DNA of 64,000 nucleotides from Candidatus Zhuqueibacterota bacterium (GTDB lineage Bacteria > Zhuqueibacterota > Zhuqueibacteria > JANLFK01 > Oleimicrobiaceae): contig JANLFK010000002.1 of the NCBI GenBank assembly GCA_024655945.1, forward strand, positions 242,610 through 306,609, written 5' to 3'. Shown here in pieces: positions 10,282 through 38,937 of the stretch; position 1 is the first letter of the stretch; each line of letters begins with the position of its first letter. Position numbers and translations under genes: made by a program. Below the pieces are notes generated by a model. That model worked only from the letters and a program-made list of their open reading frames with translations. It searched no databases and was not told the origin of the DNA.

Positions 10282-10329
10282 CTTTTCCTCCACTGCACGA
10301 CTTGGTCGCTGCTCCCTGCTTGCCAACGG

Positions 10330-12267
10330 CTATTGCTGCCCTCTCGTGTAGTTCAGCAAGCCGCCGGCAAGGATGATCGCCCGCTGTCGTTCGCTCAACT
10401 CGTAGACCAACTCCAGTTCCTCGCCTGTGGCTACTTTGCGCGCTATGAGCGGTTGCCCTTTCAGCAGCCGCATCTTTAACTCGGGCAGCTCGAGTTGGTC
10501 CCCCTGGGCAAGACGCTCATAGTCCTCTTCGACCTTGAAACGCAGCGGCAGGATGCCAAAGTTGATGAGGTTGGCCGTGTGAATGCGCTCCAAGCTCTTA
10601 GCAATCACCGCCTTGACGCCGAGGTACATGGGACAGAGCGCGGCATGTTCTCTGGACGAGCCCTGGCCGTAGCTCCAACCGCCCACCACGATGTTGAACA
10701 CCCCCCTTTCCTTGTTCTTCATACAGCGCTCCGGGAAGGTAGGGTCGATCGGCTCGAACACGAAGGTTGCATACTTGGGCACGTTGGAGCGGTACTTGAG
10801 GCGCGAGCCGGCAGGCATGATGTGGTCGGTGGTGATTTTGTCGCCCACCTTCAGTGCCACTTCCACGCGCAAGGCATCTGGCAAAGGCGTGTTGGTGGGC
10901 GGGTCACCGATGTTGGGGCCACGCAGAATCGTCACCTTTTCTGGGTGCTCCGCAGGCGGAAGAATCAAACTGTCATCAATGGTGAACCGCTCCGGCATGG
11001 GGATGGCCGGATAGGGCATCCCTAAGTCGCGGGGATCGGTGATCCCGCCGGTGAGTGCACAAGCGACGGCCGTCTCCGGGCTGACCAAGTAGACCTGTGC
11101 CGACTTTGTGCCGGAGCGGCCCTCAAAGTTGCGATTGTTGGTGCGGATGGAGACGGCATTGGTGGGAGGAGCCTGGCCGTTGCCGATGCAAAAGCCGCAT
11201 GTTGCTTCCATGATGCGCGCGCCCGCGGCAATGAGGTCGCTCAGCGCGCCGCTGGCGGCAATCATGCGCAGCACCTGCTTGGACCCCGGAGCAACAACAA
11301 AGCTGACCTCCGGATGCACAGTTCGCCCTTTCAACACCGCGGCCACGGTCAGCAGGTCCTTCACCGAGGAATTCGTGCAGCTACCGATGCACACCTGGTC
11401 AACCTTGGTACCCGCTATGTCCCGAACGCGGCACACATTGTCGGGGCTGTGCGGCTTGGCAATCATCGGCTCGATGGTGGAAAGGTCCAGTTCGATCACC
11501 CGGTCATACTCGGCGTCTGGGTCAGGAGCAAGCAGCACCCACACGTGCTCGCGCCCCTGTGCCTTCAGGAATCGCCTGGTTACCTCATCGCTGGGGAAAA
11601 GCGACGTGGTCACTCCCAGTTCGGCGCCCATGTTGGTGATGGTCGCCCGCTCTGGGACCGACAGCGTGGCGATGCCTGGCCCGCCGTATTCGATCATCCA
11701 GCCCACATTGCCCTTGGTCGTGAGCATCTCAAGCACCTTGAGGATGACGTCCTTGGCGGCGACCCACGGCTGCAGTTGACCGGTGAGCAGGATCTTCAGG
11801 ACCCTTGGATAGGTGAGGTAAAAGGCGCCACCACCCATGGCCACCGCCACGTCCAGTCCGCCCGCGCCGATGGCCATCATCCCCAGGCCGCCGCCCGTGG
11901 GGGTGTGGCTGTCTGAGCCGAGCAGCGTCTTGCCCGGCACGCCAAATCGTTCCAAGTGCACCTGGTGGCAGATGCCATTTCCCGCCTTGGAGAGATAGAT
12001 CCCGTACTTGGCAGCCACCGACTGCAGGTAGCGGTGATCGTCGGCGTTCTCGAATCCGTCCTGGAGCGTGTTGTGGTCGATGTAGCTCACCGACAGCTCG
12101 GTCTTGACGCGAGGAATCCCCATGGCTTCGAACTGAAGATAGGCCATGGTGCCGGTGGCATCCTGGGTGAGCGTCTGGTCGATGCGGATAGCCACCGGCT
12201 CGCCGGCCTTCATTTGGCCTTCCACCAGGTGAGCAGCAACAATCTTTTGAACAAGATTCTGTCCCAT
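10330..12267 (-). CDS. Aconitate hydratase (aconitase family, 645 aa)
   Basis: N-terminus MGQNLVQKIVAAHL... and aconitase-family Cys ligand regions (e.g. ...CIGSCTNSS...) are present. Confidence 0.9.
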   Translation of the reverse strand: MGQNLVQKIVAAHLVEGQMKAGEPVAIRIDQTLTQDATGTMAYLQFEAMGIPRVKTELSVSYIDHNTLQDGFENADDHRYLQSVAAKYGIYLSKAGNGICHQVHLERFGVPGKTLLGSDSHTPTGGGLGMMAIGAGGLDVAVAMGGGAFYLTYPRVLKILLTGQLQPWVAAKDVILKVLEMLTTKGNVGWMIEYGGPGIATLSVPERATITNMGAELGVTTSLFPSDEVTRRFLKAQGREHVWVLLAPDPDAEYDRVIELDLSTIEPMIAKPHSPDNVCRVRDIAGTKVDQVCIGSCTNSSVKDLLTVAAVLKGRTVHPEVSFVVAPGSKQVLRMIAASGALSDLIAAGARIMEATCGFCIGNGQAPPTNAVSIRTNNRNFEGRSGTKSAQVYLVSPETAVACALTGGITDPRDLGMPYPAIPMPERFTIDDSLILPPAEHPEKVTILRGPNIGDPPTNTPLPDALRVEVALKVGDKITTDHIMPAGSRLKYRSNVPKYATFVFEPIDPTFPERCMKNKERGVFNIVVGGWSYGQGSSREHAALCPMYLGVKAVIAKSLERIHTANLINFGILPLRFKVEEDYERLAQGDQLELPELKMRLLKGQPLIARKVATGEELELVYELSERQRAIILAGGLLNYTRGQQ

Positions 12268-12318
12268 GATGGCCCTTCACACTCCTTTTCTCGACGAGGA
12301 GACACCTCGACAGGCAAA

Positions 12319-12350
12319 GGGGCTGCCCTCAAGGGCACGAGGGCAGCCCC
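12319..12350 (-). other. Perfect 12-bp inverted repeat (GGGGCUGCCCUC / GAGGGCAGCCCC, 8-nt loop) between the citrate synthase stop and the aconitase start. Candidate intercistronic stem-loop or weak terminator/attenuator.
   Basis: Seen directly in the sequence. On the minus strand it is followed only by TTTG, so it is not a strong intrinsic terminator. Confidence 0.4.
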
Positions 12351-12361
12351 AGGCCGCAAGA

Positions 12362-13642
12362 CTACGCTGCGCCGACTTGCTTCTTGACCCAATCGGTTCC
12401 TACCGACTTCGGGCGCTCGATGGGTGCACCCATGGCGCGACCGACGATCAGTTGCGCGCACATGCCCAGAGCTCGCGAGACGCCGAACAGCACCGTGTAG
12501 TAGTCGAACTCCTTGAGGCCGAAGTAGTAGAGTAGCGCCCCTGAACCGGCGTCGACATTAGGCCAGGGGTTCTTGGCCTTGCCATGGGCCTGCAGCACCT
12601 CCGGCACCACCGCAAACAGCCGGTCGACGATCTGGAACACCTTGTCCTGCGCGCAGACGCGCTTGCCAAAGGCGTGGAAAGCGGTGAAGCGTGGGTCGGT
12701 GGCCCGCAGCACCGCATGTCCATAGCCAGGAATGACCTTGCCTGAATTCAGGGTGTCCCAGGCGAACTTTTTCAGCTCCTCATCGCTGGGCACGCCTTTG
12801 TACTTCTCCAGGATCTCCAACACGAATTTCAGGCATTCCTGATTGGCGAGCCCGTGCAGAGGGCCGGCCAACCCGTTCAGTCCCGCAGAAACCGCATAGT
12901 AGGCATCCGAAAGAGCCGAGCCCACCAGGTGGCAGGTGTGAGCGCTCACGTTGCCGCTCTCGTGGTCGCTGTGCAGCACCAGGTACAGGCGCATCAAGTT
13001 GGCGAACTCCCCGGTGGGGTCATCGAACCCCAGCATGCGCACATAGTTCGCACTCCAATCCAGCTCTGGGTCGCCCTTGATAAGCTTGCCATCCTTGAAA
13101 CGGATGCGGTACACACCCGCCGCCACCGCCGGCAGCCGTGCCAAGAGATTGAGCGAGTCCTCCAGCATCGGCTCCCAGTACTCGGTCTTGGTCATGCCCT
13201 CGTCGTAGCGCTTGCGGAACAGCGATTCGCGCTCCATCACCAGGATGGCCGTGTCGAACATGGCCATGGGGTGCGAATCCTTGGGCATCGCGCGCAGCAC
13301 AGCCCACACATACTCCGGGACCTTCGCGCGCTTGGTGAACTCATTGCGCAGGTCCTCCAGAGCGGCCTTGTCGGGCAGCTCTCCGGTGCACAGCAGATAA
13401 AACACCTCCTCGGGCGTCTCGTCGGTGAGCTGGGCGATGGGTATGCCTCTGATAATGAGCCCCTTCTCTGGATCCACCAAAGAAGTGTCGCAGATCAGAG
13501 ACTTGACACCGCGCATGCCGCCGTAGGCCTGGGCCACGGTGACTTCGGAGATGACCTTGTCACCGTGGGTTTTGACCAGGTTGGCAATGTCTTCTCGCAA
13601 ACGCGGGATCTGCTCAGCCAGTTTCTGCTTCAAGGTTGCCAT
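12362..13642 (-). CDS. Citrate synthase (eukaryotic-like ~430-aa type)
   Basis: MATLKQKLAEQIPRLRED... and the overall citrate synthase signature. A strong RBS AAAGGAGGGTG lies upstream. Confidence 0.92.
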   Translation of the reverse strand: MATLKQKLAEQIPRLREDIANLVKTHGDKVISEVTVAQAYGGMRGVKSLICDTSLVDPEKGLIIRGIPIAQLTDETPEEVFYLLCTGELPDKAALEDLRNEFTKRAKVPEYVWAVLRAMPKDSHPMAMFDTAILVMERESLFRKRYDEGMTKTEYWEPMLEDSLNLLARLPAVAAGVYRIRFKDGKLIKGDPELDWSANYVRMLGFDDPTGEFANLMRLYLVLHSDHESGNVSAHTCHLVGSALSDAYYAVSAGLNGLAGPLHGLANQECLKFVLEILEKYKGVPSDEELKKFAWDTLNSGKVIPGYGHAVLRATDPRFTAFHAFGKRVCAQDKVFQIVDRLFAVVPEVLQAHGKAKNPWPNVDAGSGALLYYFGLKEFDYYTVLFGVSRALGMCAQLIVGRAMGAPIERPKSVGTDWVKKQVGAA

Positions 13643-13837: not shown

Positions 13838-14263
13838 TCAACGTGCACCCGAGGCGCGGAAGGGGCTCGGCCCAAGTCTTCTCACGGTGTCCACAAAGTT
13901 GTTGACCATCTGCTGGAACTTGGGCGCCTCGGTGGCCAGGATCCACTCTAATCGGAGCCTTCGCGGGTCAACGCCGAACTGCCGCAGCATGCTGCGCAAA
14001 AGGGCAAACCGCCGCATCGTGCGGAAGTTGCCGCCGACGTAGTGACAATCGCCTGGATGACAACCGGCGATCATCACGCCGTCGGCGCCACGGCGCAGCG
14101 CTTCGATGACAAACTCTGGCTCCACGCGCGAGGTGCACTCCATGCGCACCACGGCAAAGTTCGGCTGCATGGGCAGCCGCGCCACGCCTGCCAGGTCCGC
14201 AGCCGCATCGGCACACCAGTCACAACAAAGCACCAAAACTTTAGGTTCGAACGCCGCAGTCAC
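13838..14263 (-). CDS. mvhD: MvhD-like (methyl-viologen-reducing hydrogenase delta subunit family) [2Fe-2S] protein
   Basis: N-terminus ...PKVLVLCCDWCADAAADLAG... and the ...AGCHPGDCHY... Cys motif typical of MvhD. Confidence 0.85.
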   Translation of the reverse strand: MTAAFEPKVLVLCCDWCADAAADLAGVARLPMQPNFAVVRMECTSRVEPEFVIEALRRGADGVMIAGCHPGDCHYVGGNFRTMRRFALLRSMLRQFGVDPRRLRLEWILATEAPKFQQMVNNFVDTVRRLGPSPFRASGAR

Positions 14264-14292: not shown

Positions 14293-17200
14293 TCAGCTCA
14301 GCGCCGCGCCGATCACCGCCATGAGCTGGTCGCGGGTCCTGCCCTGCTGTCGCATGGCGCCACTGGCACAGGCCGCCACACAGCAGCCGCAGCCAGTGCA
14401 CATGGCCTGGATGACCTCGGCGCGCTCCTTGTAACGCCCGTTCTCGCGCACGCGGTTGATGCGAATGGCATCGAACTCGCAGGCGCCTTCACAGATTCGG
14501 CAACCCGTGCAGAGCTCTTCGTCAGGGTGAGCGTACACCCCTTGCCAGGACAGTTCACCGCGTGTCAGCAGTGCCGTGACCCGCGCCGCAAGGGCATGGG
14601 CATGGGTCACCGACTCGCGCAACGAGCGTGGCGAGTGCGCCAGGCCGCCGACAAACACGCCTGCGCGGGCAAGGTCAAGCGGCCGGAACTTGCTGTTGAC
14701 TTCGGCAAAAAACCCATCTTCATCCAATGGCACGCGCAATACCTTGCTCAGTCTGCCGTTCTTGGCCGCGACCACACCGGTGGAAAGAACCACCAAGTCT
14801 GCGGTGAACAGGAGCATCTCGTCGATGATCTTGTCCAGCACAAGCACTTCCAGTTTGCCATTCCGCTGTCTGACCACCGGCTTCTGGGCTAAGTCGTAGC
14901 GGAGAAAGATTACCCCGGCCTCCCTGGCCTTGGTGTAGTATTCCTCGCTGAAGCCGTAGGTCATAATGTCCCGATTGAGCACGTAGACCGCCAGGTCTGG
15001 GTTGGCCGTCTTGAGGGCAAGGGCATTCCGGATGGCCTGCGAACAGCAGATGCGGCTACAGTAGGGCCGCCGCTCATCGCGGGAGCCCACACACTGAATC
15101 ATGACCACGCACTTGAGCCGCGAGGGGTTCAGTTTGCCCTTGGCGAGCCGTTGCTCCAGCTGGGTCTGGGTGAGCACCCGGCGGTTTTTCCCATACAGGT
15201 ACTCCTTGGGTTGGTACTCGACGGCACCTGTGGCCACCACCACCACCCCATGCTGCAGCTGGCGCTTCGCCCCGGAGGCCCGCCGCACCGTCGTGCGGAA
15301 GTTGCCCACGAACCCATCAAGACGTGTGACCTCCGAGCGGAGATGGACGGTGATGCGCGGATTGGCTCTGACCTTCTCGATAGTCTTCCGCACAAAATCG
15401 GCGACGTCCAGTCCCTCCAGGGTGCGGTCGAAGAGCAGCGCGTTGCCCCCGAGCTCTCCGCTTTTCTCCACCAAGTGGACGGCGAAGCCCTGGGCGGCGA
15501 TGTCCAGGGCGGCAACCATGCCGGTCACCCCGCCGCCGATGACCAGCGCCCGGGGCGTGACCTTGAGCACGCCCGGCGGTGCGGCAGTCGTGCTGCGCAG
15601 GCGCATGGCCGCTGCGTGGAGCAGGAACCTTGCCTTCTCGAGTGCCATTCCGCGGTCGGCGTGAATCCAGCCCACCTGCTCCCGCAACGGAACTACCTCC
15701 AACATGCGGCGATCAACTCCTGCCTCCGCCAACATCTGGGCGAAACGGTCTTCGTACAGGTGAGGTGAGCAGGCGCCAAACAGCACCCGGTTCAGCCCCT
15801 GCGCTCGGATGGCCTCTTTGACCCCCGCCAGGGTCGACTGGAAGCAGAGCAGGTCCACCACCGCTACATGCGCAACTCCGGGGAGGTTCCTTGCCGCACT
15901 GGCCAAGGCCTGCAGGTCGAGAACCTCCCCGACCTCTCCCTGGCACCTGCAGAGAAAGACTCCAATGCGCGCTTCTGCGCCTCGATGCTCTGCGGGGCTC
16001 AACGCCTGGTGTGCGCCGCCATGGTCACGCCGGCCAGGCTTGACCACGAGGGCTGCTTGTGCGGCAGCGGCAAGGCCCTGCGCCACGCTCTCGGGAATAT
16101 CGCGGGGCGCAGTCAGCGCGCCACAGGCAAAGACCCCGGCCCTTCCGGTGCTCACCGCAGAGAAGCCCGGGTACGAGACAAAGCCGTGCCGGTTCACCTT
16201 TGCCCCTATGGCCGAGGCAAGCGCGGCGCTCTGCTCGGCAGGGCCCAATCCCACCGAAAGAACCACCAGTTCGAACTCGCGCCGCTGGAATGAGCTGTCC
16301 TCGGCCTCGTACACCACGACCAGATTCTTGCTCGCCGGGTGTTCCTCCACCGCGGACACGCGGCAGCGCGTGAACGCCACTCCCAGTTCCTGTTGGGCCT
16401 TCTGATACACGCGGTGATACCCCTTGCCGAAGGCACGCACGTCCATGTAGAAGATCTGCGACTGTATTCCTGCCGCCTTGAGGTGCGCTGCCTCCTTGAT
16501 GGCAAACATGCAGCACGCCGACGAGCAGTAGTCGTGCTCGGCGTCCCGGGAGCCCACGCACTGGAGAAAAGCCACCGAAGCCGGAACTTTGCCGTCGGAG
16601 GGACGGCGCACGGCCCCTTGCGTCGGCCCGCCCTCGCTGGTGAGCCGCTCCAGCTCGGTGCTGGTCACCACGTTAGCAAATCGGCCATAGCCAAACTGAC
16701 TCAGCGAGGAGGGGTCAAATTCTTTGAACCCAAGGGCAGCCACAATCGCCCCGACGTGGAGGTACTGGGTGGTCGGTCCGGCATCCAGGGAGATGGCGCC
16801 GGTGGGGCAAATGCGCACGCATTCACCGCAGCGCGTGCAAGCGGCCGCGTCGATGGTGTACAGGCGCGGAATACCCAAGCCGTGGCGCACGTACACCGCC
16901 TTGCGCACGCTCAGCCCCTGGTTGAACTCGTCCTGGACCTCCACTGGACATACCGGAATGCAGCGGCCACACGTGATGCACTTTTCCGGGTCCACAAACT
17001 GCGGGCTCGTCACCATGGTGGCCACGAAGGCGCCAGGCTTGCCTTCCAGCGCGGTGAGCTGGCTATCAAAGACCACCTTGACGTTCGGGTAGAGGAGCCC
17101 ACGCCGCAAGCAGAAGCCGGACACCCCTTCACCGGGCACGGCCGGCAATAGCTTGCACAAGCCGCAATCGTCGGTAGGGAACAGCCTGTCGAGCTGCAGC

Positions 17201-17340
17201 ACCTTGCCGCCTAGCATCGACGACTGGTCCACCAGGTAGACGGGCACCCCCATGTCCGCCAGTTCGATGGCGGCGCGAATCCCGGCAACGCCTGCTCCCA
17301 CCACCAGGACTGCTTGAGTCTTCTCGCTTCGCTCCGCCAC
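14293..17340 (-). CDS. hdrA: HdrA-family flavin/Fe-S protein (heterodisulfide reductase subunit A-like). Unusually large at 1015 aa, with two HdrA-like FAD modules and an internal MvhD-like segment.
   Basis: Two dinucleotide-binding GxGxxG motifs (VVGAGVAGIRAA, VIGGGVTGMVAAL). Several CxxCxxCxxxCP ferredoxin motifs. An internal ...RIGVFLCRCQGEVG... MvhD-like region. Confidence 0.9.
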   Translation of the reverse strand: MAERSEKTQAVLVVGAGVAGIRAAIELADMGVPVYLVDQSSMLGGKVLQLDRLFPTDDCGLCKLLPAVPGEGVSGFCLRRGLLYPNVKVVFDSQLTALEGKPGAFVATMVTSPQFVDPEKCITCGRCIPVCPVEVQDEFNQGLSVRKAVYVRHGLGIPRLYTIDAAACTRCGECVRICPTGAISLDAGPTTQYLHVGAIVAALGFKEFDPSSLSQFGYGRFANVVTSTELERLTSEGGPTQGAVRRPSDGKVPASVAFLQCVGSRDAEHDYCSSACCMFAIKEAAHLKAAGIQSQIFYMDVRAFGKGYHRVYQKAQQELGVAFTRCRVSAVEEHPASKNLVVVYEAEDSSFQRREFELVVLSVGLGPAEQSAALASAIGAKVNRHGFVSYPGFSAVSTGRAGVFACGALTAPRDIPESVAQGLAAAAQAALVVKPGRRDHGGAHQALSPAEHRGAEARIGVFLCRCQGEVGEVLDLQALASAARNLPGVAHVAVVDLLCFQSTLAGVKEAIRAQGLNRVLFGACSPHLYEDRFAQMLAEAGVDRRMLEVVPLREQVGWIHADRGMALEKARFLLHAAAMRLRSTTAAPPGVLKVTPRALVIGGGVTGMVAALDIAAQGFAVHLVEKSGELGGNALLFDRTLEGLDVADFVRKTIEKVRANPRITVHLRSEVTRLDGFVGNFRTTVRRASGAKRQLQHGVVVVATGAVEYQPKEYLYGKNRRVLTQTQLEQRLAKGKLNPSRLKCVVMIQCVGSRDERRPYCSRICCSQAIRNALALKTANPDLAVYVLNRDIMTYGFSEEYYTKAREAGVIFLRYDLAQKPVVRQRNGKLEVLVLDKIIDEMLLFTADLVVLSTGVVAAKNGRLSKVLRVPLDEDGFFAEVNSKFRPLDLARAGVFVGGLAHSPRSLRESVTHAHALAARVTALLTRGELSWQGVYAHPDEELCTGCRICEGACEFDAIRINRVRENGRYKERAEVIQAMCTGCGCCVAACASGAMRQQGRTRDQLMAVIGAALS

Positions 17341-17377: not shown

Positions 17378-18265
17378 TTAGGCGGCAGCCGCCGGTGACA
17401 CCTTGGCCAAAACCGCGTCTGGCCGCACCTTGTTCAGGCGGACCCCAAGGTCCTTCGGGTCGTACCCCATGGCAAGTCCCAAGACCTGGGGATAGAAAAA
17501 GACCGGAAGGGCGATTTCACGCTGGAACTGCTCTTCCACCTTCTTCTGGTTGTCCTCGTAGAGCACGCTGCAGAACGGGCAGATGGAGATGAGCGCGTCG
17601 GCCCCGGCAGCCCGCACATCACTCAACTTCAGGCCCGACAGTCCAAGCGCCGTCGTCTGCTCCACACCTAAGATGGCGCCACCGCAGCAGTACTTCTTGG
17701 TCTCGTAGCGGATAACTTCGGCCCCGGTGACAGCCACCAGCTCGTCCAAAGAGCGCGCCGCCTCGGGGTCGTCGAAAGCGTCATAGTTCCCTTTTGGGCG
17801 CACGAAGTGGCAACCATAATGCGGAGCCAGTTTCAGCGTCGTCAGGGGTCTGGTCACGTGCCGACGCAAATTGTCGATGCCATAGTCTTCGTACAGAATT
17901 CGCGCAAAGTGTTTCACTTTGACCGTGCCCCGGTACTGGCGATTGATCTTGCGCAGCTGGCGGTTCACCTGTCGCAACAGTTCAGGGTGCTGCTGCAGCT
18001 CGAGATTGGTCTCGGTGAGCACCGCCGAACATGCGCTGCACAGGCAGCAGACGTCCAGCCCTTGCTCCTCGGCCACCGCCAAGTTGCGCGCCGCCATGAG
18101 CAGAGTGGTCTGCGCATTGGTGGACTTGACAGGAAAGCCGCAACAGGAGAAATCCTCCACGTCCACCAACTCGATCCCCAGCCCGCTGGCAACCGCCCGC
18201 ACGGCCACTTCATAGTTCTGGCTGCGGATCGGCACCGTGCAGCCGAGAAAGAGGGCGTACTTCAT
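17378..18265 (-). CDS. hdrB: HdrB-family protein (two CCG domains)
   Basis: MKYALFLGCTVP... N-terminus and CCG motifs (...FSCCGFP...). Confidence 0.88.
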   Translation of the reverse strand: MKYALFLGCTVPIRSQNYEVAVRAVASGLGIELVDVEDFSCCGFPVKSTNAQTTLLMAARNLAVAEEQGLDVCCLCSACSAVLTETNLELQQHPELLRQVNRQLRKINRQYRGTVKVKHFARILYEDYGIDNLRRHVTRPLTTLKLAPHYGCHFVRPKGNYDAFDDPEAARSLDELVAVTGAEVIRYETKKYCCGGAILGVEQTTALGLSGLKLSDVRAAGADALISICPFCSVLYEDNQKKVEEQFQREIALPVFFYPQVLGLAMGYDPKDLGVRLNKVRPDAVLAKVSPAAAA

Positions 18266-18825
18266 GGCTGATTGGCCTCCGCCGCTTCGGTGTACTTGCC
18301 CATCCCGGTCATGCGAAAGATCTCCTGCACCTCGGGGAATGTCTTCCTGACCGGGGGAAGGCCTAAGCGCTGGCGCTTCTTGTTGTCAAAATCCTCCACC
18401 TCATAGAGGCGGCCAAACCTGCCCACTAACTCCGCCTGCTGGCGGAAAGTGGGGTGCAAATAGCCCTCGCGCGCAGCGATGTTCTTCACGGCAGTCATGA
18501 TATCGGTCACGCGCACCCCTTGCGGACAACGGTCGGCGCAGGTGTAGCAGCCAGAGCAAAGCCAGATGAAGTCACTGCTCAGCACCCGCTCCCTCATGCC
18601 CAGCAAGATCATATGCACCAGCTGCCGGGGATTGTAGCGCGCGTCCACGGCGTGCACGGGACAGGCGGCTGTGCACGTGCCGCAGGCAAAACAGCGCGCA
18701 CTGAGCTCGCCCCCTGGCTCCTTAGCAACCTCTCGCCAGAAGCTGGGGGTCAACTCCTCGAATCTGGTCATCGGCTTGCTGCCCTTCACGTTCGCCACGG
18801 TCAAGCTCCTCATCGCCTGCGTCAT
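18262..18825 (-). CDS. hdrC: HdrC-family 2x[4Fe-4S] protein
   Basis: Motifs CFACGTCTAACP and CSGCYTCADRCP. 4-nt overlap with hdrB. The start may be the internal Met at about 18771. Confidence 0.82.
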   Translation of the reverse strand: MTQAMRSLTVANVKGSKPMTRFEELTPSFWREVAKEPGGELSARCFACGTCTAACPVHAVDARYNPRQLVHMILLGMRERVLSSDFIWLCSGCYTCADRCPQGVRVTDIMTAVKNIAAREGYLHPTFRQQAELVGRFGRLYEVEDFDNKKRQRLGLPPVRKTFPEVQEIFRMTGMGKYTEAAEANQP

Positions 18826-19875
18826 CTACCGTGCGTTCATAATGGCCATGGAAAAGTCCTCGGCGGTCACGCCTGGCGTTTCCACTTCGTGTTCATCGCA
18901 GAATTCGCCCACCCGCTGCACAATGTCCTCGGGCTGGCGCTTTATCCCCTTCAGGGAGTTCTCCAAGCCAGCCAGTTCCTCCTTGGGATAGAAGGTGAAA
19001 TCGCCGGAAATGCCGAGGTCTTTGATGCGCTCCCGCTCCACCTCCTGCACCGTGCGGATCAGGCCGCCTGGGGCCTTGTGGATGCCGAAGGAGATCTCCA
19101 CGCCCTCCCGGATCTTCACCCCTGTGGCCACGCGCGGCGTCTTCTTGAAGAGGAACTCGGGGGAATTGAACTCCTGCTCCAGCCGCGCCATGGTCGCCCA
19201 AAGCTCGCTGGTCATCTCGGCCGGCTCCAGGGGGCCCACCAGCCGCGTGAAGTGCCGCACCAAGGCGCGCTTGATCTCTTCGCGAGGGGGCAGAGCACCG
19301 AGCTCGCGCTTCATGGTGGTGAGGTTCTCCTCCATGCTCTTGAAAATCTTGTCGCGAAACTTTTCCTCCGGCACCTTGAGCACGCGCACCATGGTCTCAT
19401 AGTCAAAATCCAAGAGGATGCCGCCGACGAAAACCATGCAATCGCCGATGTTAGCGCCGCCTTCGCCGGCGATCTTCCGCCCTTCGCCGGTGACGATGTC
19501 ATTGACCGGCCGGAAGCGGGCCTTGATGCCGAACTCGCGATAGGTCTCCACCGGAGCCTGGGAGAACCACTCGTAGATTTCGCTGATTTTCTTGGGGAAG
19601 TGGGGGTTGGAGCGTCGCCAGATGAGCTGGTAGAAGATCTGGTTCCCATCCAGATAGGTGGTGCCGCCGCCTACCTCGCGGCGCATGGCGGGAATTTTCA
19701 CCTTCTCCAAATACTCCAGGTCAATCTCCTGCTTGGCGTCCTGGAAGTAGCCGATGCTCACCAGCGGGTCTTGCGGCGAGACGATGACCAGGCTCTCCAC
19801 GCCCATGCGCGCCAAGGCGTGGAAGATGAGCATCGAATTCTGACCGGGAAGCTTGTCCAAGTAAAAGAGCTGCAT
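18826..19875 (-). CDS. Lipoate/octanoate-protein ligase family protein (BPL/LplA/LipB catalytic domain plus LplA-type C-terminal domain)
   Basis: Start at MQLFYLD, preceded by GGAGG. A conserved ...GRKIAGEGG... lysine region resembles the LplA active-site Lys. Embedded between hdrC and the glcF-like gene. Confidence 0.78.
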   Translation of the reverse strand: MQLFYLDKLPGQNSMLIFHALARMGVESLVIVSPQDPLVSIGYFQDAKQEIDLEYLEKVKIPAMRREVGGGTTYLDGNQIFYQLIWRRSNPHFPKKISEIYEWFSQAPVETYREFGIKARFRPVNDIVTGEGRKIAGEGGANIGDCMVFVGGILLDFDYETMVRVLKVPEEKFRDKIFKSMEENLTTMKRELGALPPREEIKRALVRHFTRLVGPLEPAEMTSELWATMARLEQEFNSPEFLFKKTPRVATGVKIREGVEISFGIHKAPGGLIRTVQEVERERIKDLGISGDFTFYPKEELAGLENSLKGIKRQPEDIVQRVGEFCDEHEVETPGVTAEDFSMAIMNAR

Positions 19876-19965
19876 GCCCGACCTCCGTGTTCGTTTCACC
19901 AAGGGTCTCCCTTGCTCCGTCTCGGGCCTGCTATGCCCGTCATCCCCCAATGCAGTGCACCGCCT

Positions 19966-21045
19966 TCAAGCGCCAGCCGAGCGCAGCGCGTCCCACACCA
20001 AGTCTGCCACGTCGCGCACGACGATGTCGCCCTCCCCTGCCTCAGCCAAAGACGTAGCGCCCTTCTTGAGGGTTTGCTCGCAGGTGGCACAAGAGGTGAC
20101 GATGGTCTTCGCCCCTGTGGCCATGGCCTGACGCACCCGGTTGCGCGCCAATTGCGCGGAGAGCTGCTCGTTGGAGGAAAGAATGCCGCCACCGCCACCG
20201 CAGCAGCGCGTGGTGTTCTTGCTCTTCGGCATCTCCTTCACTTCCGCGCCAATCGCGCTCAGCACGCGCCGCGGCTCTTCCACCACCTTGGCACCGCGCG
20301 CCAAGTCACACGGGTCATGATAGGTGACCGTCACTTCCAGCTTCTTGACCTTGTCGGCCGGGAGCTTTTCGGCCACCGCCTGCAAGAAGTGGCGCGTCGG
20401 GATACCGTACTCCTCTTTGAGGAAAACCGTGCAGGTGGGACAGAAGGTGATGGTGGGCTCTTTGGCCAGCATCTGGGCCAAGCGCTTCTTGTGCTCCTCG
20501 AATTTGTGCACAAAGCCCAGAGAGACCAGGGGAAACCCGCAGCAGATCTCCTCCTGCACTTTGGGCTTGAGGCCGATCATCTCGAGTATCTTGAGGTACT
20601 TTTTCACCTTATTCGGCCGCGCCAAGAACTGGCAGCCGATGAATACGCGCACCTCCCCCTCCTGCTTGGGCAACATCACTTCCTGGTCCCCGAAGATGTT
20701 GCCCGAGGCCATCACGTTCTCTGCCAGCATGATCTGGCCGGGGAAGGCCAGCCCCATGTCCACCAGCTCGGCGCGCGCCGCCCGCACGATCTGCGGCACT
20801 TTGACCTTGGAGGGGCAGCGCCGCTCGCAGTCCCCGCACATGGTGCATTCGTAGATCCTCTGCGCCACGCTTTCGTCCGCCTGGATCTCGCCGGTGAGCA
20901 TGCCGTACGCCAAGATGTTGCGCCCCCGTGCCGAGGTGCCATCCCAAAGAATCTCGTCAAAGGGCGGACAGACGTTCTTGCAGTACCCGCACAGAGTGCA
21001 GGTGATGAGTTCGTTCAGCCACGGTTTCAGATATTCGCCTTTCAT
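19966..21045 (-). CDS. HdrD/GlcF-like Fe-S protein: 2x[4Fe-4S] plus two CCG domains (glycolate oxidase Fe-S subunit / LutA / Dld-II partner family)
   Basis: CTLCGYCKNVCPP and CTMCGDCERRCP motifs, ICCGFP and CCGGGGG CCG motifs. Its ATG overlaps the glcD-like TGA stop (ATGA), and a GGAGGTG RBS is present. Confidence 0.85.
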   Translation of the reverse strand: MKGEYLKPWLNELITCTLCGYCKNVCPPFDEILWDGTSARGRNILAYGMLTGEIQADESVAQRIYECTMCGDCERRCPSKVKVPQIVRAARAELVDMGLAFPGQIMLAENVMASGNIFGDQEVMLPKQEGEVRVFIGCQFLARPNKVKKYLKILEMIGLKPKVQEEICCGFPLVSLGFVHKFEEHKKRLAQMLAKEPTITFCPTCTVFLKEEYGIPTRHFLQAVAEKLPADKVKKLEVTVTYHDPCDLARGAKVVEEPRRVLSAIGAEVKEMPKSKNTTRCCGGGGGILSSNEQLSAQLARNRVRQAMATGAKTIVTSCATCEQTLKKGATSLAEAGEGDIVVRDVADLVWDALRSAGA

Positions 21046-22478
21046 TGCGACACCTCCACAGGGTACCGTAGGTGGGTGATGAACCCATTTTCCCACTCCT
21101 GAATCTTGTGCGGGTTCATGATGTTGTTTGGGTCCAAAGCGCGTTTGACAGCCTTCATCGCCGCGATCAAGCTGGCGCGCTCCTGGCGGAAGTACGGCGT
21201 CTTGGTAATGCCAATGCCATGCTCACCGGTCACCGTGCCGCCCAGCTCCAGCACAATGTCATAGATTTCCTGCACTGCCTTGTCCGCCTGCCGCCAGTGG
21301 TCCGGGTTGGTGGGATCCATGAGCACTTTGGTGTGCAGATTGCCATCACCGGCGTGGCCGTAGGCGGGGATTTCGATGTCGTAGCGGTCCGAGACCTCCT
21401 GGAAGCGCACCACCGCCTCCGGCACTTTGGAGATGGGCACGGACATATCATCAGCGAGCATCACCGTGGCGTATTCTTCGCGCAGGGCGCTCAGCGAGGG
21501 GATCATCTGCTTGCGCCCCTTCCACAGCTCCTCCAGGCGCTTGGGGTCCTCACTAAAGTCCATGGACACGGCGTTGTTCTTCTTGCACACCTCGGTGACC
21601 TTTGCCAGCTCCTCCCGCACCGCCTGCAGATTGTTCCCGTCCACTTCGATGAGCAGGATGGCATCGACCTCGGGCAGCCCCAGGCCGGTGGCCTTGTTGA
21701 CCGCCTTGATGCAGGTGCCCGACATCAGCTCCATGTTCGACGGCAGGATAGGCACAGCGATGATGTCGGACACCGTTTGCCCTGCCTCGCGGATATGGGC
21801 AAACGCCGCTACGCACCCTGCGCGGTAGGTGGCCAAGGGCACCAGCTTGAGGGTGATTTCGGTGACGATGCCCAAGGTTCCTTCCGAGCCGACGAAGAGC
21901 TTCTCGAACTGGTAGCCGCTGGCCCCCTTCACTGAACGGGCACCGCACCGGGCAATATCGCCGGTGGGCAACACCACCTCCAGGCCAAGCACGACGTCCC
22001 GCGTGGCCCCGTACTTCAGAGCCTTATCACCCGAGGCGTTACAAGCAACCATGCCGCCAAGCGTTGCCGCCTCGCTGCTGGCAGGACCGGGGATGAAGAA
22101 CTTGTACTTTTTCAGGGCCGCGTTTAGGTGGTCGCACACCACCCCTGGCTCCACCACGCAGATCAGGTCCTCGACGCAGATCTCTTTGATCTTCTTCATG
22201 CGCTGCAGGTCGACCACCACGCCGTGGTCGATGGGCACCGAATGTCCACAGAGGGCGGTGCCGGCACCGCGCGGCACCACGGGGAATTTGAATTCGTTGG
22301 CCAGCTTCACGATCTGGGCGACCTCCTGCGTGTTGATCGGCTGCACGACCACATCCGGCACCTCGCGGTGGATGCCACCGTCAAAGGCGTAGACGTAGCG
22401 CTCGGCGATGCTGGTCTTGCAGCGGTCTTCGCCCACAATGCTCTGCAGTCGTGCGATGACCTCTTTCTTGAGCGCCAT
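21042..22478 (-). CDS. FAD-linked oxidase, GlcD / D-lactate dehydrogenase family (FAD_binding_4 plus C-terminal domain)
   Basis: MALKKEVIARLQSIVGEDR... and the GlcD-like FAD-binding region. Confidence 0.86.
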   Translation of the reverse strand: MALKKEVIARLQSIVGEDRCKTSIAERYVYAFDGGIHREVPDVVVQPINTQEVAQIVKLANEFKFPVVPRGAGTALCGHSVPIDHGVVVDLQRMKKIKEICVEDLICVVEPGVVCDHLNAALKKYKFFIPGPASSEAATLGGMVACNASGDKALKYGATRDVVLGLEVVLPTGDIARCGARSVKGASGYQFEKLFVGSEGTLGIVTEITLKLVPLATYRAGCVAAFAHIREAGQTVSDIIAVPILPSNMELMSGTCIKAVNKATGLGLPEVDAILLIEVDGNNLQAVREELAKVTEVCKKNNAVSMDFSEDPKRLEELWKGRKQMIPSLSALREEYATVMLADDMSVPISKVPEAVVRFQEVSDRYDIEIPAYGHAGDGNLHTKVLMDPTNPDHWRQADKAVQEIYDIVLELGGTVTGEHGIGITKTPYFRQERASLIAAMKAVKRALDPNNIMNPHKIQEWENGFITHLRYPVEVSQ

Positions 22479-22512
22479 GATCTTTCTCCTCTCTTTCGGT
22501 TCTCCGTGCCGC

Positions 22513-23759
22513 TCAATCCAACAGTGGCACGGTGATGCTGCCATCCATCAAGAAGATCACCTGACAATCAGGTCCTTTTTCTGCCAGCGCCTCGTCCAAG
22601 GCCTCCTGCACGCTGCGGAACGGCTTGATGAAGATTGCCTCAAGGTCCTTGTCCGGCAGGTCGGTGACCCCCCAGACCTGTGCCCAGGTATTGATCTCCG
22701 CCATCTTCGCTGCCTTGTGATAGCCGAGTTTGAACTCCTTGCCGATTCTTTCGATGGTGGCCCGGGGGGAGTCGCAACTGGAAAGCAGATCGAAAAAAGT
22801 GCGCTCGCCGATGCCGGTGCGGCACTTGGAGACCATGATGAGAATCCCGCCCTCTTTGAGCGCTAACTTTCCGTTGTCCAAGGCCTTCTGCGATTGATAA
22901 AGGTCCACATCCATTGGGTAGGGTGCCACCGAGACCACCACATCGGCCTTGCCGCGGATTTTCACGGTAAAGACCTCGTTGGCCTTGGCAATGCACGCGC
23001 GGAAGGAAGCATGGAGATCGCCTGCTGCTGCTGCATAAATACGCCGGTCCCGATCCAGGACCGTTTGGATGGAAAAGATCTCCTTGTCGGCGATGCTGCG
23101 CAAGGCATCGATCATGTCCTCGTGCACCGGGTTGCCTTCCAGCACCAGCGCCTTAGCCTCCAGGCGCAGCGCGTGCTTGTGGTTCTGCTCAATGGTCGCA
23201 TAGGAGGCAATGCCCGGGAGGAAGGACTTGCGGCCGCCCGTGTAGCCGGCAAAATAGTGGGGCTCCACCGAGCCGATGATGACAATCTTGTCCGCCTCCA
23301 CGCCCATGCGGTTGACGTACATTTCGGTGCCGTTCACCGAGGTGCCGATGTGCACCATCTCCTCCTGCTTGCGGCAGTCGTGGACGTAGATGCGATCTTT
23401 CAAGTAGGGATAATGACGCCCAAAGATAAAGTCGTATTCCTCCTGCGTCGGTGCCCGGTGCACACCGGTGGCAATCAAGAAACGGCTTTTTGTGAGAGGA
23501 ATCTTCGGCTGCAGGATGTCGAGTATCTTGGCGGTAGGAGTGGGGCGCGTGCCGTCGTTGACAATGAAAAGAACGTCTCGGGCGTCAGACAGGAATTCGT
23601 CGAACGGGCGCGATTGCAGCGGCGACGAGATTGCCGCCATGAGTGTTGCCATCTCATCGCCGACCACTACAGAGTTGGGGTGAAGCACGTGCATCACGTG
23701 GTGGTCGGCGATCTCCACCTGCTGCGCCTCTCTGCCGTACGGGATCGCAAGTCTCACCG
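22513..23759 (-). CDS. LarA-family (nickel-pincer-nucleotide-dependent lactate racemase-like, DUF2088) protein
   Basis: Architecture and length are typical of LarA homologs. GTG start chosen at VRLAIPYG, with GGAGAG 7 nt upstream. A long Arg-rich N-terminal extension from the first ATG was rejected. Confidence 0.75.
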
Positions 23760-23851: not shown

Positions 23852-24286
23852 CTACTTCTTCTTTTCGCGCTCCACCCGCTCCTTCTCACCTTCAAGGTAC
23901 TTGGGGATGTCGCCAATCTTCATGAGGCCGGCAAGCTGGGCATCCAAGTCAGAGGCCTCGATGACCATGATCCACCCGTCACCATAGGGGGACTTGTTAA
24001 TCAGGTTGGCCGTATCCTCGAGGGCGTTGTTCACCTCGGCAATGGTGCCGGTGAGTGGGCTGACGATTTTGCCCACCCACTTGCTGGATTGCAGCTTGCC
24101 CACCGTCTCCCCTTCAGAGACCTCGTCGCCTTCGAAAGGCAGGTCCACGTAGACGATCTCCCCTGAGAGCTTTTGGTAAAAGTCCGTCATCCCCACTCTG
24201 GCGCGGCCATCGCCCTCGGGCTTGACCCAAGTGTGCTCCCTGTGGTAGTAGAGATCGTCCGGGTAGTCGTAACCTTCAATTTCCAT
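23852..24286 (-). CDS. GcvH-family lipoyl-carrier protein (glycine-cleavage H protein / LbpA-like). First gene of the operon.
   Basis: Start at MEIEGYDYPDDLYYHREHTWVK with a GGAGGGAGCC RBS. Lipoyl-lysine context ...GKLQSSKWVGKIVSPLTGTI... matches the GcvH E-S-V-K-A region. Confidence 0.85.
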   Translation of the reverse strand: MEIEGYDYPDDLYYHREHTWVKPEGDGRARVGMTDFYQKLSGEIVYVDLPFEGDEVSEGETVGKLQSSKWVGKIVSPLTGTIAEVNNALEDTANLINKSPYGDGWIMVIEASDLDAQLAGLMKIGDIPKYLEGEKERVEREKKK

Positions 24287-24408: not shown

Positions 24409-24437
24409 ATTATACAAAATTCCCCCCTCAAAGTCAA
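24409..24437 (-). promoter_or_regulatory. Near-consensus sigma70 promoter for the gcvH-larA-glcDF-lplA-hdrCBA-mvhD operon: -35 TTGACT (24437..24432), 17-bp spacer, TG-TATAAT -10 (24414..24409).
   Basis: The minus strand reads GCTTGACTTTGAGGGGGGAATTTTGTATAATAGCGC. These AT-rich hexamers stand out in a >60% GC background, about 120 nt upstream of the gcvH ATG. Confidence 0.6.
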
Positions 24438-27593: not shown

Positions 27594-28703
27594 GTGGCAA
27601 GCGAACGCTGCAAGCTCTGCGGTCAGCCAGGATTAGTCAGTCGGGCCCTGGGCGTCTGTGCCAGCTGCATAGTGCAGCGGGAGGTGCAGGCAAAGGAATT
27701 CGTGCGGCAGGCGCATCGTGCGGCGCGCCGACCCTTTGATGTGCCCGACGAAATGCCCAGGGCCGCAGAGGGTGTGGGTTGCAAGGGGTGTGGCAACAAT
27801 TGCCGCATGCCCCTTGGCGGGCGCGGCTACTGCGGGCTGCGGCGCAACGAGGGCGGCAGGCTCATGCAACTGGCGGGCACGCCGCGCGGCGCCCTGGTGA
27901 GCTGGTACCACGACCCCCTGCCCACCAATTGCGTGGCAAGCTGGGTCTGTCCAGCCGGCGCAGAAGTCGGCTATCCCGATTTCCCCTATGCTCCCGGGCC
28001 TGAGTACGGCTACACAAACCTCGCCGTCTTCTACAAGGCGTGTAGCTTTGATTGCCTGTTCTGCCAGAACTGGCACTACCGGGAAGCAAAGCCCACCAAC
28101 AGACAGCGCTCTGCGCAGGAGCTGGCAGCAGCCGTGGACCGGCGAACCGCCTGCATCTGTTACTTCGGCGGTGACCCTGCGCCTCAAGTGGCGCACGCCT
28201 TGGCCGCCTCGCGTCTTGCGCTCCGTGCCAACGCAGGGCGGCCGCTGCGCATCTGCTGGGAGACAAACGGCAGCGTCGGCCTCCCTGCGCTGCGCAAGAT
28301 GGCGGATCTCTCCCTGCGCAGCGGCGGCTGCATCAAGATCGACCTCAAAGCCTTCACGCCGCAGCTGCACGAGGCGCTGTGCGGCACGAGCAACGCCCAG
28401 ACCATAGCGAATGTGGCCTGGCTGGCAAGGCTCGCCCGGCAACGCCCCTCCGTGCCCCTCCTTGTGGTCAGCACTCTGCTTGTTCCGGGCTACGTGGAGG
28501 CCGACGAGGTTCGTCGCATTGCCGGCTTTATCGCCTCCCTGCACCAGGACACGCCCTATTCGCTGCTCGCCTTTTACCCCCAGTTCTTCATGAGTGACCT
28601 TCCTGCAACTTCGCGGGAACAGGCCTACTCCTGCGTGGAGGCGGCACGGGCTGCCGGGCTGCGGCGCGTCCACTTGGGCAACCAGCACCTGCTGGGCCTG
28701 TAG
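27594..28703 (+). CDS. Radical SAM protein, PflA / AmmeMemoRadiSam-like, with an extra N-terminal Cys-rich (Zn-ribbon-like) segment
   Basis: CxxxCxxC core ...ACSFDCLFCQNWHY.... N-terminal CKLCGQ...CASC. The start codon may be a nearby GTG. Confidence 0.75.
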   Translation: MASERCKLCGQPGLVSRALGVCASCIVQREVQAKEFVRQAHRAARRPFDVPDEMPRAAEGVGCKGCGNNCRMPLGGRGYCGLRRNEGGRLMQLAGTPRGALVSWYHDPLPTNCVASWVCPAGAEVGYPDFPYAPGPEYGYTNLAVFYKACSFDCLFCQNWHYREAKPTNRQRSAQELAAAVDRRTACICYFGGDPAPQVAHALAASRLALRANAGRPLRICWETNGSVGLPALRKMADLSLRSGGCIKIDLKAFTPQLHEALCGTSNAQTIANVAWLARLARQRPSVPLLVVSTLLVPGYVEADEVRRIAGFIASLHQDTPYSLLAFYPQFFMSDLPATSREQAYSCVEAARAAGLRRVHLGNQHLLGL

Positions 28704-37559: not shown

Positions 37560-38052
37560 GCGCCATACTCTCCCTTCCTTTTCGCTCCGCCTCGGCCCGG
37601 AGACGGCGTCGTTCCCCGGCTTCCGTCCAGCGCCGGCGTTCCTCCTCAGTCTCGAGGGCCACGTCCGCAACCCTTATCGGACGCCCATCCTCGCCCAACG
37701 CCACAAAAGTCAGGTACCCAGAACATGCGTGGTACGCAGCCTTGGCGTAGGTATCTTCCGCCCACACCTTGACGCCCACCTCCATGGAACTGCCAAACAC
37801 CCGGTTCACCTTCGCCTTACATACCACGACTTGTCCCACTCTGATTGGTTTCAAAAAGCGGACCTCCTGTACCGCCACCGTGGCTACGCGCGTGCCGGTG
37901 TGACGCCTGGCGGCGATGGTAGCCACCATGTCCATGATCTGCAGAATCCTGCCCCCGAACACGCTGCCGATGCTATTGGCGTCTGCTGGCAGGGCCAGCA
38001 GGACCGTCTCGGCTTCACCGGATCTGATGCCGGCGGCGCGTTCCGGTTTCAT
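37546..38052 (-). CDS. Hotdog-fold acyl-CoA thioesterase (YciA-like)
   Basis: ...[22 protein letters not shown]... 4-nt overlap with lipA upstream. Confidence 0.7.
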
Positions 38053-38915: not shown

Positions 38916-38937
38916 GCTGAGCTGCACCGTCCTCGTG

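Follow-up and report, generated by a model that had tools for sequence, protein, structure and literature searches.

Lipoyl proteins are already known as partners of enzymes of the heterodisulfide reductase (Hdr) type. The precedent comes from sulfur oxidation by the sHdr-LbpA system, in which a lipoyl protein goes together with Hdr-like complexes (PMC6067878), and a maturation set made up of LipT, LipS1 and LipS2 has been described for the shdr-lbpA gene clusters (PMC10332631). Furthermore, a role as disulfide carrier has been speculated for the GcvH protein of an archaeal (Culexarchaeia) Hdr/hydrogenase cluster (PMC9723716). Here, we describe a gene for an H-protein of the GcvH family (gcvH; positions 23852..24286, minus strand) which leads a nine-gene hdr operon in a stretch of 64,000 nucleotides, hereafter the window, from contig JANLFK010000002.1 of Candidatus Zhuqueibacterota bacterium. 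To our knowledge, it has long been asked what Hdr-like and CCG-domain enzymes act on outside methanogens, and among protein partners only DsrC and LbpA are established. We lean towards the view that the H-protein is the dedicated lipoyl carrier of its operon, serving as dithiol/disulfide substrate of the CCG sites encoded downstream, and that it does not primarily take part in glycine cleavage. What appears to be new, as judged from sequence, is a subfamily of H-proteins linked to genes for a LarA-type racemase, a Dld-II-type dehydrogenase and Hdr subunits.

The protein, of 144 amino acids (aa), matches Pfam GCV_H (PF01597) at 6.5e-38 and is assigned here to a QSxKW subfamily. Its lysine K69 aligns with the lipoyl lysine (SVK) of Escherichia coli GcvH at a pairwise identity of 40% (37-41% when the canonical H-proteins of E. 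coli and Thermus thermophilus, 1onl, are both considered), and K69 and the glycine at +11 (G80) are invariant across the alignment of free-standing clade members, including the 14 out of 14 loci that were found independently. It is a candidate for lipoylation at K69. An AlphaFold model obtained from 30 homologues (predicted local distance difference test, pLDDT, of 91.2) superposes on 1onl with template-modelling (TM) scores of 0.84/0.95, and all the top Foldseek matches of the model are H-proteins (E-value of 9e-14). In the model, an extra helix seems to be present at the C-terminus (residues 124-143). According to the cysteine map, the protein contains no cysteines. It passes narrowly the equivalog models for GcvH, both TIGR00527 (128.2 bits; cutoff 115.85) and NF002270 (129.4 bits; cutoff 117), and the Prokaryotic Genome Annotation Pipeline (PGAP) names it "glycine cleavage system protein GcvH". 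The start codon is backed by 29 homologues, all of which begin at the same position; a 178-aa version starting at an upstream GTG is contradicted by the homologue alignment and absent from the protein collection. An earlier note, made from the DNA letters alone, had pointed to a lipoyl-lysine context and to a strong ribosome-binding site: its sequence QSSKWVGKIVSPLTGTI is present in the translation, the alignment of K69 and the Pfam match agree with the former, and an AAGGAGG site located 5-6 nt 5' of the ATG agrees with the latter.

Although formally a GcvH by profile score and fold, the protein belongs, on its sequence, to a distinct subfamily of H-proteins. All members of its clade share the lipoylation loop GKxQS[SA]KW[VI]GK, and the closest relatives are 55-63% identical. 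The window loop, QSSKWVGK, differs from that of E. coli (AESVKAASD) by the replacement of E by Q at -3, of A/S by W at +1 and of D/E by K at +4; every clade member keeps both Q66 and W70, and the canonical pattern E-[ST]-x-K-[AST] is absent from the window protein. In canonical H-proteins, the P- and T-proteins as well as generic ligases make contact with this loop. The clade is rare: a motif scan in which each of 185,579 species was represented by one genome returned only 142 stretches, of which 124 were confirmed as relatives. Their hosts are (i) bacteria of the WOR-3, Stahlbacteria, TA06, Zixibacteria, Sumerlaeota, Omnitrophota, Planctomycetota, Deltaproteobacteria and Clostridia; and (ii) about 28 Thermoplasmatota and related archaea. 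When 1.84 billion sequence representatives were searched exhaustively, only 14 proteins reached E ≤ 1e-30.

From the best 150 matches, 138 single-domain representatives (110-200 aa) were aligned, and the loop patterns E-K-[AST], E-K-W and Q-K-W were found in 64, 39 and 10 of them, respectively. In a neighbour-joining tree which covers the canonical and W(+1) groups (i.e., those without and with tryptophan after the lysine), and from which the loop was masked, 61 of the 66 W(+1) sequences group together in a clade of 79, and a clade of 16 holds 14 of the 17 Q-K-W sequences. The tree carries no bootstrap, the purity of the groups is moderate and the identities between groups are similar (38-40%); in consequence, the QSxKW group must be regarded as coherent but not sharply separated. 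Some close GCV_H relatives lack the lipoyl lysine: one of 160 aa (P0123; P-numbers are labels of proteins from the representatives search, and L-numbers labels of genomic loci) has the loop N-S-W-A-W and ends in ...SAGCG, and two others (P0154 and P0165) carry a cysteine-rich N-terminal extension.

The nine genes of the operon, all of them on the minus strand and, from gcvH onwards, spaced by -4 to 94 nt, are, in order, gcvH, larA-like, glcD-like, FeS/CCG (hdrD-like), lplA, hdrC, hdrB, a tandem hdrA and mvhD/flpD. The second gene (22513..23757) encodes a LarA-family nickel-pincer 2-hydroxyacid racemase of 414 aa (Lar_N 7e-54, LarA_C 5e-17), counted from a GTG at 23757 which was set by the length of a 94%-identical neighbour in L001. 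The residues aligned with the motifs ATGFHR, ESH, GGRK and ANH of Lactiplantibacillus plantarum LarA are conserved, and the protein keeps the superfamily's two catalytic histidines, the lysine that binds the nickel-pincer nucleotide and the nickel-ligand histidine. Its best NCBIfam match is the malate racemase LarAH6 (380 bits; cutoff 500), followed by lactate racemase (300 bits), all of them below cutoffs; among solved structures, the malate racemase Mar2 (6d6z) is the closest with 204 bits, versus 172-185 bits for lactate racemase. The homologue is, then, slightly closer to Mar2 than to lactate racemase, and its predicted substrate is of the malate or lactate type.

The next two genes encode (i) a FAD-linked oxidase (21042..22544; likely start at ATG 22478), i.e., a GlcD-like D-2-hydroxyacid dehydrogenase subunit (FAD_binding_4 1.8e-39, FAD-oxidase_C 3.5e-63) that scores 406.6 against TIGR00387 glcD, under the cutoff of 567.9; and (ii) an HdrD/GlcF-like iron-sulfur subunit (19966..21045; CCG 1.4e-25, Fer4_8) with two CxxCxxCxxxC motifs and two complete CCG sites, whose top NCBIfam match, at 146.6 bits and below cutoff, is the thiol:fumarate reductase subunit TfrB. 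From their domains, the two proteins are a two-subunit dehydrogenase of the Dld-II type. The fifth gene (18826..19950; likely start at ATG 19875) encodes a lipoate-protein ligase with an LplA catalytic domain (LplA-B_cat 5.2e-36) and an LplB-like C-terminal domain (Lip_prot_lig_C 2.4e-6); lipoate-protein ligase is its best match, even if TIGR00545 (135.5 bits) and LplB (60.5 bits) both stay below cutoff. Orthologues of this ligase (326-461 bits) adjoin the H-protein gene in loci L003-L006, L011, L012, L014, L016, L018, L022, L027, L051, L056, L070, L075 and L081.

The last four genes encode an Hdr module: (i) an HdrC-like subunit (18262..18825) with two [4Fe-4S] clusters predicted from two CxxCxxCxxxC motifs (TIGR03290, 121.2 bits; cutoff 160); (ii) an HdrB-like subunit (17378..18265) with two complete CCG, i.e., non-cubane cluster, sites (cysteines at 9, 41-42, 73-79, 152, 193-194, 229 and 232; CCG 2.6e-25; TIGR03288, 270.7 bits; cutoff 345); (iii) an HdrA-like flavoprotein of 1015 aa (14293..17340) that matches the HdrA2 model with 794.7 bits in three stretches and contains ferredoxin domains and two tandem FAD domains of the thioredoxin-reductase type, with an internal repeat (207-444 against 708-936), and is 41% identical to the 1477-aa HdrA of L003; and (iv) an MvhD/FlpD-like [2Fe-2S] electron-transfer protein of 141 aa (13838..14263; Pfam FlpD 8.3e-48), whose gene, the ninth and last of the operon, is called in the source records of L116 and L117. 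The cofactor motifs of HdrABC are thus complete in the window, and since all the family matches fall below the equivalog cutoffs for the coenzyme B-coenzyme M enzyme, the module is to be regarded as Hdr-like. A row of genes for citrate synthase, aconitase and isocitrate dehydrogenase (9082..13642, minus strand) begins 195 nt past the operon.

Three statements of the earlier note concerned the surroundings of gcvH, and all of them stand: a ligase gene of the LplA family does belong to the operon, gcvT and gcvP are not adjacent, and lipA, which was placed 14 kb away, lies unlinked at 13.8 kb. The last of these is a classical lipoyl synthase gene (38049..39011, minus strand) beside thyX, identified by Pfam and by scores above cutoff against NF004019 (418.7 bits) and TIGR00510 (375 bits). 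Neither gcvT, gcvP nor a second gcvH was found in the 64-kb window with Pfam on all long open reading frames (ORFs) and tblastn with the E. coli proteins. Also not found in the window were (i) lpd, an E2 lipoyl acceptor and OsmC; (ii) LarB, LarC and LarE; (iii) LipL and LipM; and (iv) sulfurtransferase domains (DsrE, TusA, rhodanese).

The company kept by the H-protein gene was surveyed in a tblastn census of 80 species loci (±10 kb), with the proteins of the window operon, E. coli GcvT and GcvP, and OsmC and FlpD from a related locus as queries. Within 10 kb of the H-protein gene, a GlcD-like gene was present in 46/80 loci, LarA in 45, an FeS/CCG gene in 44, any of HdrA, HdrB or HdrC in 34, LplA in 27, FlpD in 24 and OsmC in 16; at least one of these seven was present in 75/80. 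On the other hand, gcvP was found in none of the 80 and gcvT in one, as a weak match of 102 bits situated 9.6 kb away (the GcvT-like match in question lies at about 19951 of L063, a WOR-3 chromosome, at the edge of the locus). This neighbourhood of LarA, GlcD, CCG, Hdr and LplA genes is conserved in archaea and in bacteria of more than 10 phyla. Most often, the genes follow each other as gcvH-larA-glcD-CCG(-lplA) on a single strand, less than 250 nt apart, and HdrABC-FlpD genes are frequently located upstream. Many loci of WOR-3, Stahlbacteria and TA06 show the gcvH-larA-glcD-CCG core without a ligase or HdrABC nearby and, since the four-gene core persists without them, the tightest partner of the H-protein is the racemase/dehydrogenase module formed by LarA and GlcD/CCG. 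In a reciprocal, motif-independent test, metagenome loci were fetched with the window CCG protein: an H-protein gene was present in 14 of the 17 that had enough flank, and in all 14 its product carries QSSKWVGK.

A family of peroxiredoxins also appears near the H-protein gene. Genes of the OsmC family lie within 3.5 kb in 12/80 loci; in Thermoplasmatota (e.g., L021, L030, L031, L052, L060 and L064) an OsmC-family peroxiredoxin gene is typically placed ~100 nt upstream of the H-protein gene, and in L003-L006 hdrB and hdrA have the OsmC gene between them. This adjacency suggests a link with a lipoyl-dependent peroxidase.

The same partners recur in fusion proteins. The top match among the 1.84 billion representatives (P0121, 1391 aa) consists of three GCV_H domains, FAD_binding_4, FAD-oxidase_C, a 4Fe-4S dicluster domain and two CCG domains, thus joining GlcD-like and CCG parts; these two are likewise fused in a protein of 833 aa on a WOR-3 chromosome (L063:11718-14219, plus strand). 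The hdr cluster of L070, from an unclassified bacterial metagenome-assembled genome, encodes three GCV_H proteins: a free Q-K-W protein, a fusion in which REC, GCV_H and HdrC form one protein (L070:10450-11772, plus strand) and a protein of 308 aa with GCV_H at its C-terminus; the other two are encoded at L070:9992-10420 and L070:18288-19214. The H-domains in the P0121 and L070 fusions lack the lipoyl lysine and therefore argue for physical association, not for lipoyl chemistry. An ORF similar to lactate or malate dehydrogenase (Ldh/Mdh-like) and a Fur gene are also present near the L070 cluster.

The sister group of E-x-G-K-W proteins is much larger, with more than 7000 members at E ≤ 1e-15. 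In the three loci inspected (3/3), the E-K-W H-protein gene comes after GlcD-like and CCG genes and before a second CCG gene and an Lpl ligase gene. In two loci of the Thermodesulfobacteriota type these are followed by a gene of the geranylgeranyl-reductase family (LipT-like) and by LipS1-like and LipS2-like radical S-adenosylmethionine (radical-SAM) genes, which score just under cutoff (206/230 and 210/270 bits); a LarA-like gene and a multihaem cytochrome gene are located upstream in these loci. In L111 and L113 (both at about 5281-15086) and in L114, the E-x-G-K-W H-protein gene stands between two CCG genes and is followed by an LplA-DUF116 fusion; upstream in loci of this type there are a second GlcD/CCG pair and a 475-aa protein with only the Lar_N domain, and downstream a TRAP transporter.

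If the H-protein is indeed the lipoyl carrier of the operon, the co-encoded Lpl-type ligase would lipoylate it, with LipA inserting sulfur in case octanoate were the group attached. The lipoyl dithiol/disulfide could then behave as a protein-bound "heterodisulfide" for two active sites of the CCG type: (i) that of the D-2-hydroxyacid dehydrogenase of the Dld-II type made up of the GlcD-like and HdrD-like proteins, to which the LarA-type racemase would supply the right enantiomer of lactate or malate; and (ii) that of HdrB in HdrABC-MvhD, through whose bifurcation or confurcation of electrons the carrier would be connected with ferredoxin and a pyridine nucleotide. The lipoylation, the contact of the lipoyl group with the CCG sites and the substrates are what we infer. 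Malate stays a live alternative to lactate because citrate synthase genes adjoin the operon, a malic enzyme gene occurs in L003 and an Ldh/Mdh-like ORF in L070; the racemase and the dehydrogenase, acting on malate, might feed oxaloacetate to the neighbouring citrate synthase.

Electrons might flow in either direction, towards the reduction of an oxoacid or from the oxidation of a hydroxyacid. Standard potentials are about -190 mV for lactate/pyruvate, about -290 mV for lipoamide, about -320 mV for NAD and -400 to -500 mV for ferredoxin and, because of these values, the reduction of an oxoacid by dihydrolipoyl would be downhill. Oxidation of a hydroxyacid would need a pull from the Hdr module (reduced ferredoxin + dihydrolipoyl -> 2 NAD(P)H), and the net result would be the reaction of the lactate dehydrogenase/electron-transfer flavoprotein (Ldh/Etf) complex. 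A wider proposal, advanced tentatively and with our doubts slightly outweighing our confidence, is that the W(+1) H-proteins (QSxKW and E-x-G-KW, thousands of them) might be the physiological thiol/disulfide substrate of HdrABC and of HdrD/Dld-II-type CCG enzymes outside methanogens, in a lipoyl-protein "heterodisulfide cycle" that would couple the oxidation or reduction of lactate or malate to ferredoxin and NAD(P) by flavin-based bifurcation.

Several observations weigh against a carrier role. The transfer of electrons from a hydroxyacid to lipoyl is uphill by ~100 mV at standard potentials; the fused H-domains without lysine point to a non-lipoyl role of the fold in those proteins; and the association with the partner genes is missing in 5/80 species loci and in 3/17 reciprocal loci. 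Outside the loop, the window protein is 38% identical to canonical H-proteins and 40% to the E-K-W group; the curated equivalog model for GcvH is still passed, if narrowly, and PGAP calls the protein GcvH; furthermore, it may be the only H-protein of the genome and also serve glycine cleavage. Finally, the Dld-II-type enzymes of Shewanella and Desulfovibrio work without an H-protein (PMC4481167).

The profile matches and the PGAP name, together with the canonical fold (TM 0.84-0.95) and the 40% identity to E. coli GcvH, would also be expected of an ordinary H-protein of glycine cleavage which happens to be located here by chance, gcvT and gcvP lying elsewhere in the genome. Unlinked gcvH genes do exist, for instance in Bacillus subtilis. 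But chance would have to account for a neighbourhood conserved in more than 10 bacterial phyla and archaea with gcvP near none of the 80 genes, for the 14/17 of the reciprocal test and for the existence of GlcD-CCG and HdrC fusions; the residues flanking the lipoyl lysine that the partners contact are replaced (Q at -3, W at +1, K at +4) and the leader contains no glycine riboswitch, so that we consider this explanation quite unlikely. Somewhat different is the possibility that the lipoyl H-protein, once reduced by Hdr or the dehydrogenase, acts as a defence dithiol that passes electrons to peroxidases of the OsmC/Ohr type or to further enzymes dependent on thiols; it would then keep the carrier role but with another electron sink, and we rate this as unlikely. 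Ohr/OsmC enzymes take lipoylated proteins as reductants, a peroxide sink would make the uphill step from hydroxyacid to lipoyl feasible, and OsmC genes are found close to the H-protein gene in 12/80 loci and inside the hdr cluster of L003-L006; nevertheless, neither the operon nor the 64-kb window contains OsmC, most bacterial loci are without it, and a nine-gene operon with an HdrA of the bifurcating type looks more like energy metabolism than defence.

The lysine-less domains of P0121 and L070, and those of P0123, P0154 and P0165, could also indicate that the H-protein fold is a non-redox structural or regulatory subunit which docks on the dehydrogenase or the Hdr complex, the lipoyl group being irrelevant. 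This is very unlikely for the window protein: neither K69 nor G80 varies in the free-standing clade, the 14/14 independent loci among them, and the co-encoded lipoate ligases, plus the LipS1/LipS2-like genes of the sister group, are hard to explain with an unused cofactor. The earlier note, for its part, had offered two options. One of them was a lipoate relay in which the operon ligase would load GcvH, LipA would make lipoyl-GcvH and the cofactor would be passed on as in the LipM/LipL route, and it drew on the presence of an LplA-family gene in the operon and of lipA in the window. In Firmicutes, ligases and relays specific for GcvH are well established (PMC10332631). In this locus the relay fits poorly, since the ligase carries an additional LplB-like domain and fits ligase models instead of the short LipM/LipL type, since no E2 or other acceptor, LipL or LipM occurs in the window, and since the WOR-3, Stahlbacteria and TA06 loci examined keep the H-protein with LarA, GlcD and CCG in the absence of a ligase within 10 kb; besides, the fusions and the altered loop would go unexplained. 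We therefore hold it to be highly improbable as the main role of the H-protein, although it might have a place as a side role. The other option, an LbpA-like carrier for Hdr, fared better: the conserved CCG, Hdr and ligase neighbours, the fusions and the fact that the gene is never beside gcvP speak for the carrier function, while membership in LbpA does not hold, and the tightest partner is the Dld-II-type module of LarA and GlcD/CCG and not Hdr. The LarA-like, GlcD-like and FlpD genes had gone unmentioned in the earlier note.

As for the expression of the operon, the earlier note had described gcvH as the first cistron behind the strongest promoter in the window. It is the first cistron, and a sigma-70-like promoter (TTGACT-17-TATAAT, 11/12; 24409..24437, minus strand) is found ~115 nt upstream of its ATG; but a second site of this type (TTGACA-17-TATATT; 8773..8801, minus strand), which precedes a PhoU_div (DUF47)/PHO4 phosphate transporter pair, also scores 11/12, so the gcvH promoter shares the top score with it and is not the single strongest. 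An Rfam scan of the gcvH leader matched no family and, hence, no glycine riboswitch, and the fold of the leader, a GC-rich hairpin, is no more stable than that of shuffled sequence (z = -0.4).

Elsewhere in the window, a radical-SAM gene (27594..28703, plus strand) was considered as LipS1/LipS2 and rejected, its weak matches being to AmmeMemoRadiSam and glycyl-radical-activase models. A DeoC/LacD-type aldolase is fused, unusually, to a 2×[4Fe-4S] ferredoxin domain (4408..5793, minus strand), and a gene for a tungsten-type aldehyde:ferredoxin oxidoreductase (2604..4424, minus strand) lies directly downstream of it. At the window edge there is an RnfC-like gene (Complex1_51K, RnfC_N and Fer4; 62187..63560, minus strand), which is consistent with an anaerobic energy metabolism based on ferredoxin. 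In two tandem paralogues of 381-384 aa (47379..49675, minus strand), CarboxypepD_reg at the N-terminus is the only domain recognised.

Searches of a paper library aimed at GcvH or lipoate together with Hdr, CCG, LarA or lactate dehydrogenase yielded no account of an H-protein associated with LarA, Dld-II or Hdr genes in these lineages; the matches nearest in topic were (i) the sHdr-LbpA system; (ii) one speculative remark on Culexarchaeia; and (iii) the puzzle posed by gcvH-lpdA in acetogens. The context tables of the LarA superfamily list COG0247 and COG0277 (Fe-S oxidoreductase and FAD dehydrogenase) as neighbours, and GcvH is not listed in them. The operon and its relatives would thus offer a testable candidate for the disulfide of bacterial Hdr/CCG enzymes, that is, a lipoyl H-protein subfamily recognisable by a sequence signature, and would tie the H-proteins with this signature to 2-hydroxyacid metabolism in widespread uncultivated anaerobes. 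Thousands of proteins automatically annotated as "glycine cleavage system protein GcvH" are probably no evidence for glycine cleavage, a point that affects the metabolic reconstructions of these phyla. Were the wider proposal true, a heterodisulfide cycle would be used by uncultivated anaerobes (KSB1, WOR-3, Zixibacteria, Sumerlaeota, Thermoplasmatota), and lipoate would have a third established role beside acyl/aminomethyl transfer and sulfur oxidation.

Compared with known systems, the window protein resembles canonical GcvH (E. coli; T. thermophilus 1onl) in its fold (TM up to 0.95), in the lipoyl-lysine hairpin and in the glycine at +11, but canonical proteins have the loop E-S-V-K-A-A-S-D instead of Q-S-S-K-W-V-G-K, do not have the additional C-terminal helix predicted by the model and are encoded in another gene neighbourhood. 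The dehydrogenase pair, in turn, shares FAD_binding_4, FAD-oxidase_C, the 4Fe-4S dicluster and two CCG domains with the Dld-II of Shewanella oneidensis and of Desulfovibrio vulgaris (DVU3027-28; PMC4481167), and the single-chain GlcD-CCG protein of L063 resembles the Shewanella enzyme; while no H-protein, racemase or Hdr genes are attached to the known Dld-II examples, the H-protein gene precedes the module in most relatives of the window locus.

With the HdrABC-MvhAGD and HdrDE complexes of methanogens, and with TfrAB, the operon has in common the homologues of HdrA, HdrB, HdrC and MvhD and the complete CCG sites, the best match of the HdrD-like protein being TfrB. The logic would also be shared with the cycle of the heterodisulfide of coenzymes M and B (CoM-S-S-CoB), in which a disulfide carrier is cycled between one CCG enzyme that reduces it and another that oxidises it. 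The window differs from methanogen Hdr in its scores below equivalog cutoffs, an operon without hydrogenase, the tandem HdrA and a proposed disulfide which would be a protein-bound lipoyl group. Also comparable are the GcvH of Culexarchaeia in an Ehe/Hdr cluster (PMC9723716) and gcvH-lpdA of acetogens (PMC4600107), as both are orphan gcvH genes found in redox clusters without gcvT or gcvP; nevertheless, their partners are different (hydrogenase, CdhA and SdhA, or enzymes of the Wood-Ljungdahl pathway), and they come with no family-wide analysis, motif or link to LarA and Dld-II.

The LbpA proteins of sHdr systems (Hyphomicrobium denitrificans, Thioalkalivibrio; PMC6067878, PMC10332631) are, like the window protein, single-domain lipoyl proteins homologous to GcvH which are encoded with Hdr-like CCG proteins and a lipoate ligase. 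No gcvT or gcvP gene adjoins either of them, both presumably provide a dithiol/disulfide for Hdr-type active sites, and the E-K-W sister group shares with LbpA the maturation genes similar to LipT, LipS1 and LipS2. The differences are also considerable. LbpA has two conserved cysteines, one N-terminal and one C-terminal (PMC6067878), and the window protein none; the members of its clade have 0-3, at positions other than those of LbpA (e.g., GETCGK). LbpA systems include DsrE, TusA or rhodanese genes and the order hdrC1B1A-hyp-hdrC2B2, both of them lacking in the window operon, whose partners are instead a LarA racemase, a Dld-II-type dehydrogenase and a tandem HdrA with MvhD. The window host belongs to the anaerobic KSB1 lineage, unlike the sulfur-oxidising hosts of LbpA; a LipA of classical type lies near the operon, versus LipS1/LipS2 in LbpA systems, and the window ligase has two domains. 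Finally, the window protein, unlike LbpA, still scores as GcvH in NCBIfam. On this comparison, the H-protein of the window would work like LbpA without being a member of the LbpA family, from which it is set apart by the published features that define LbpA.

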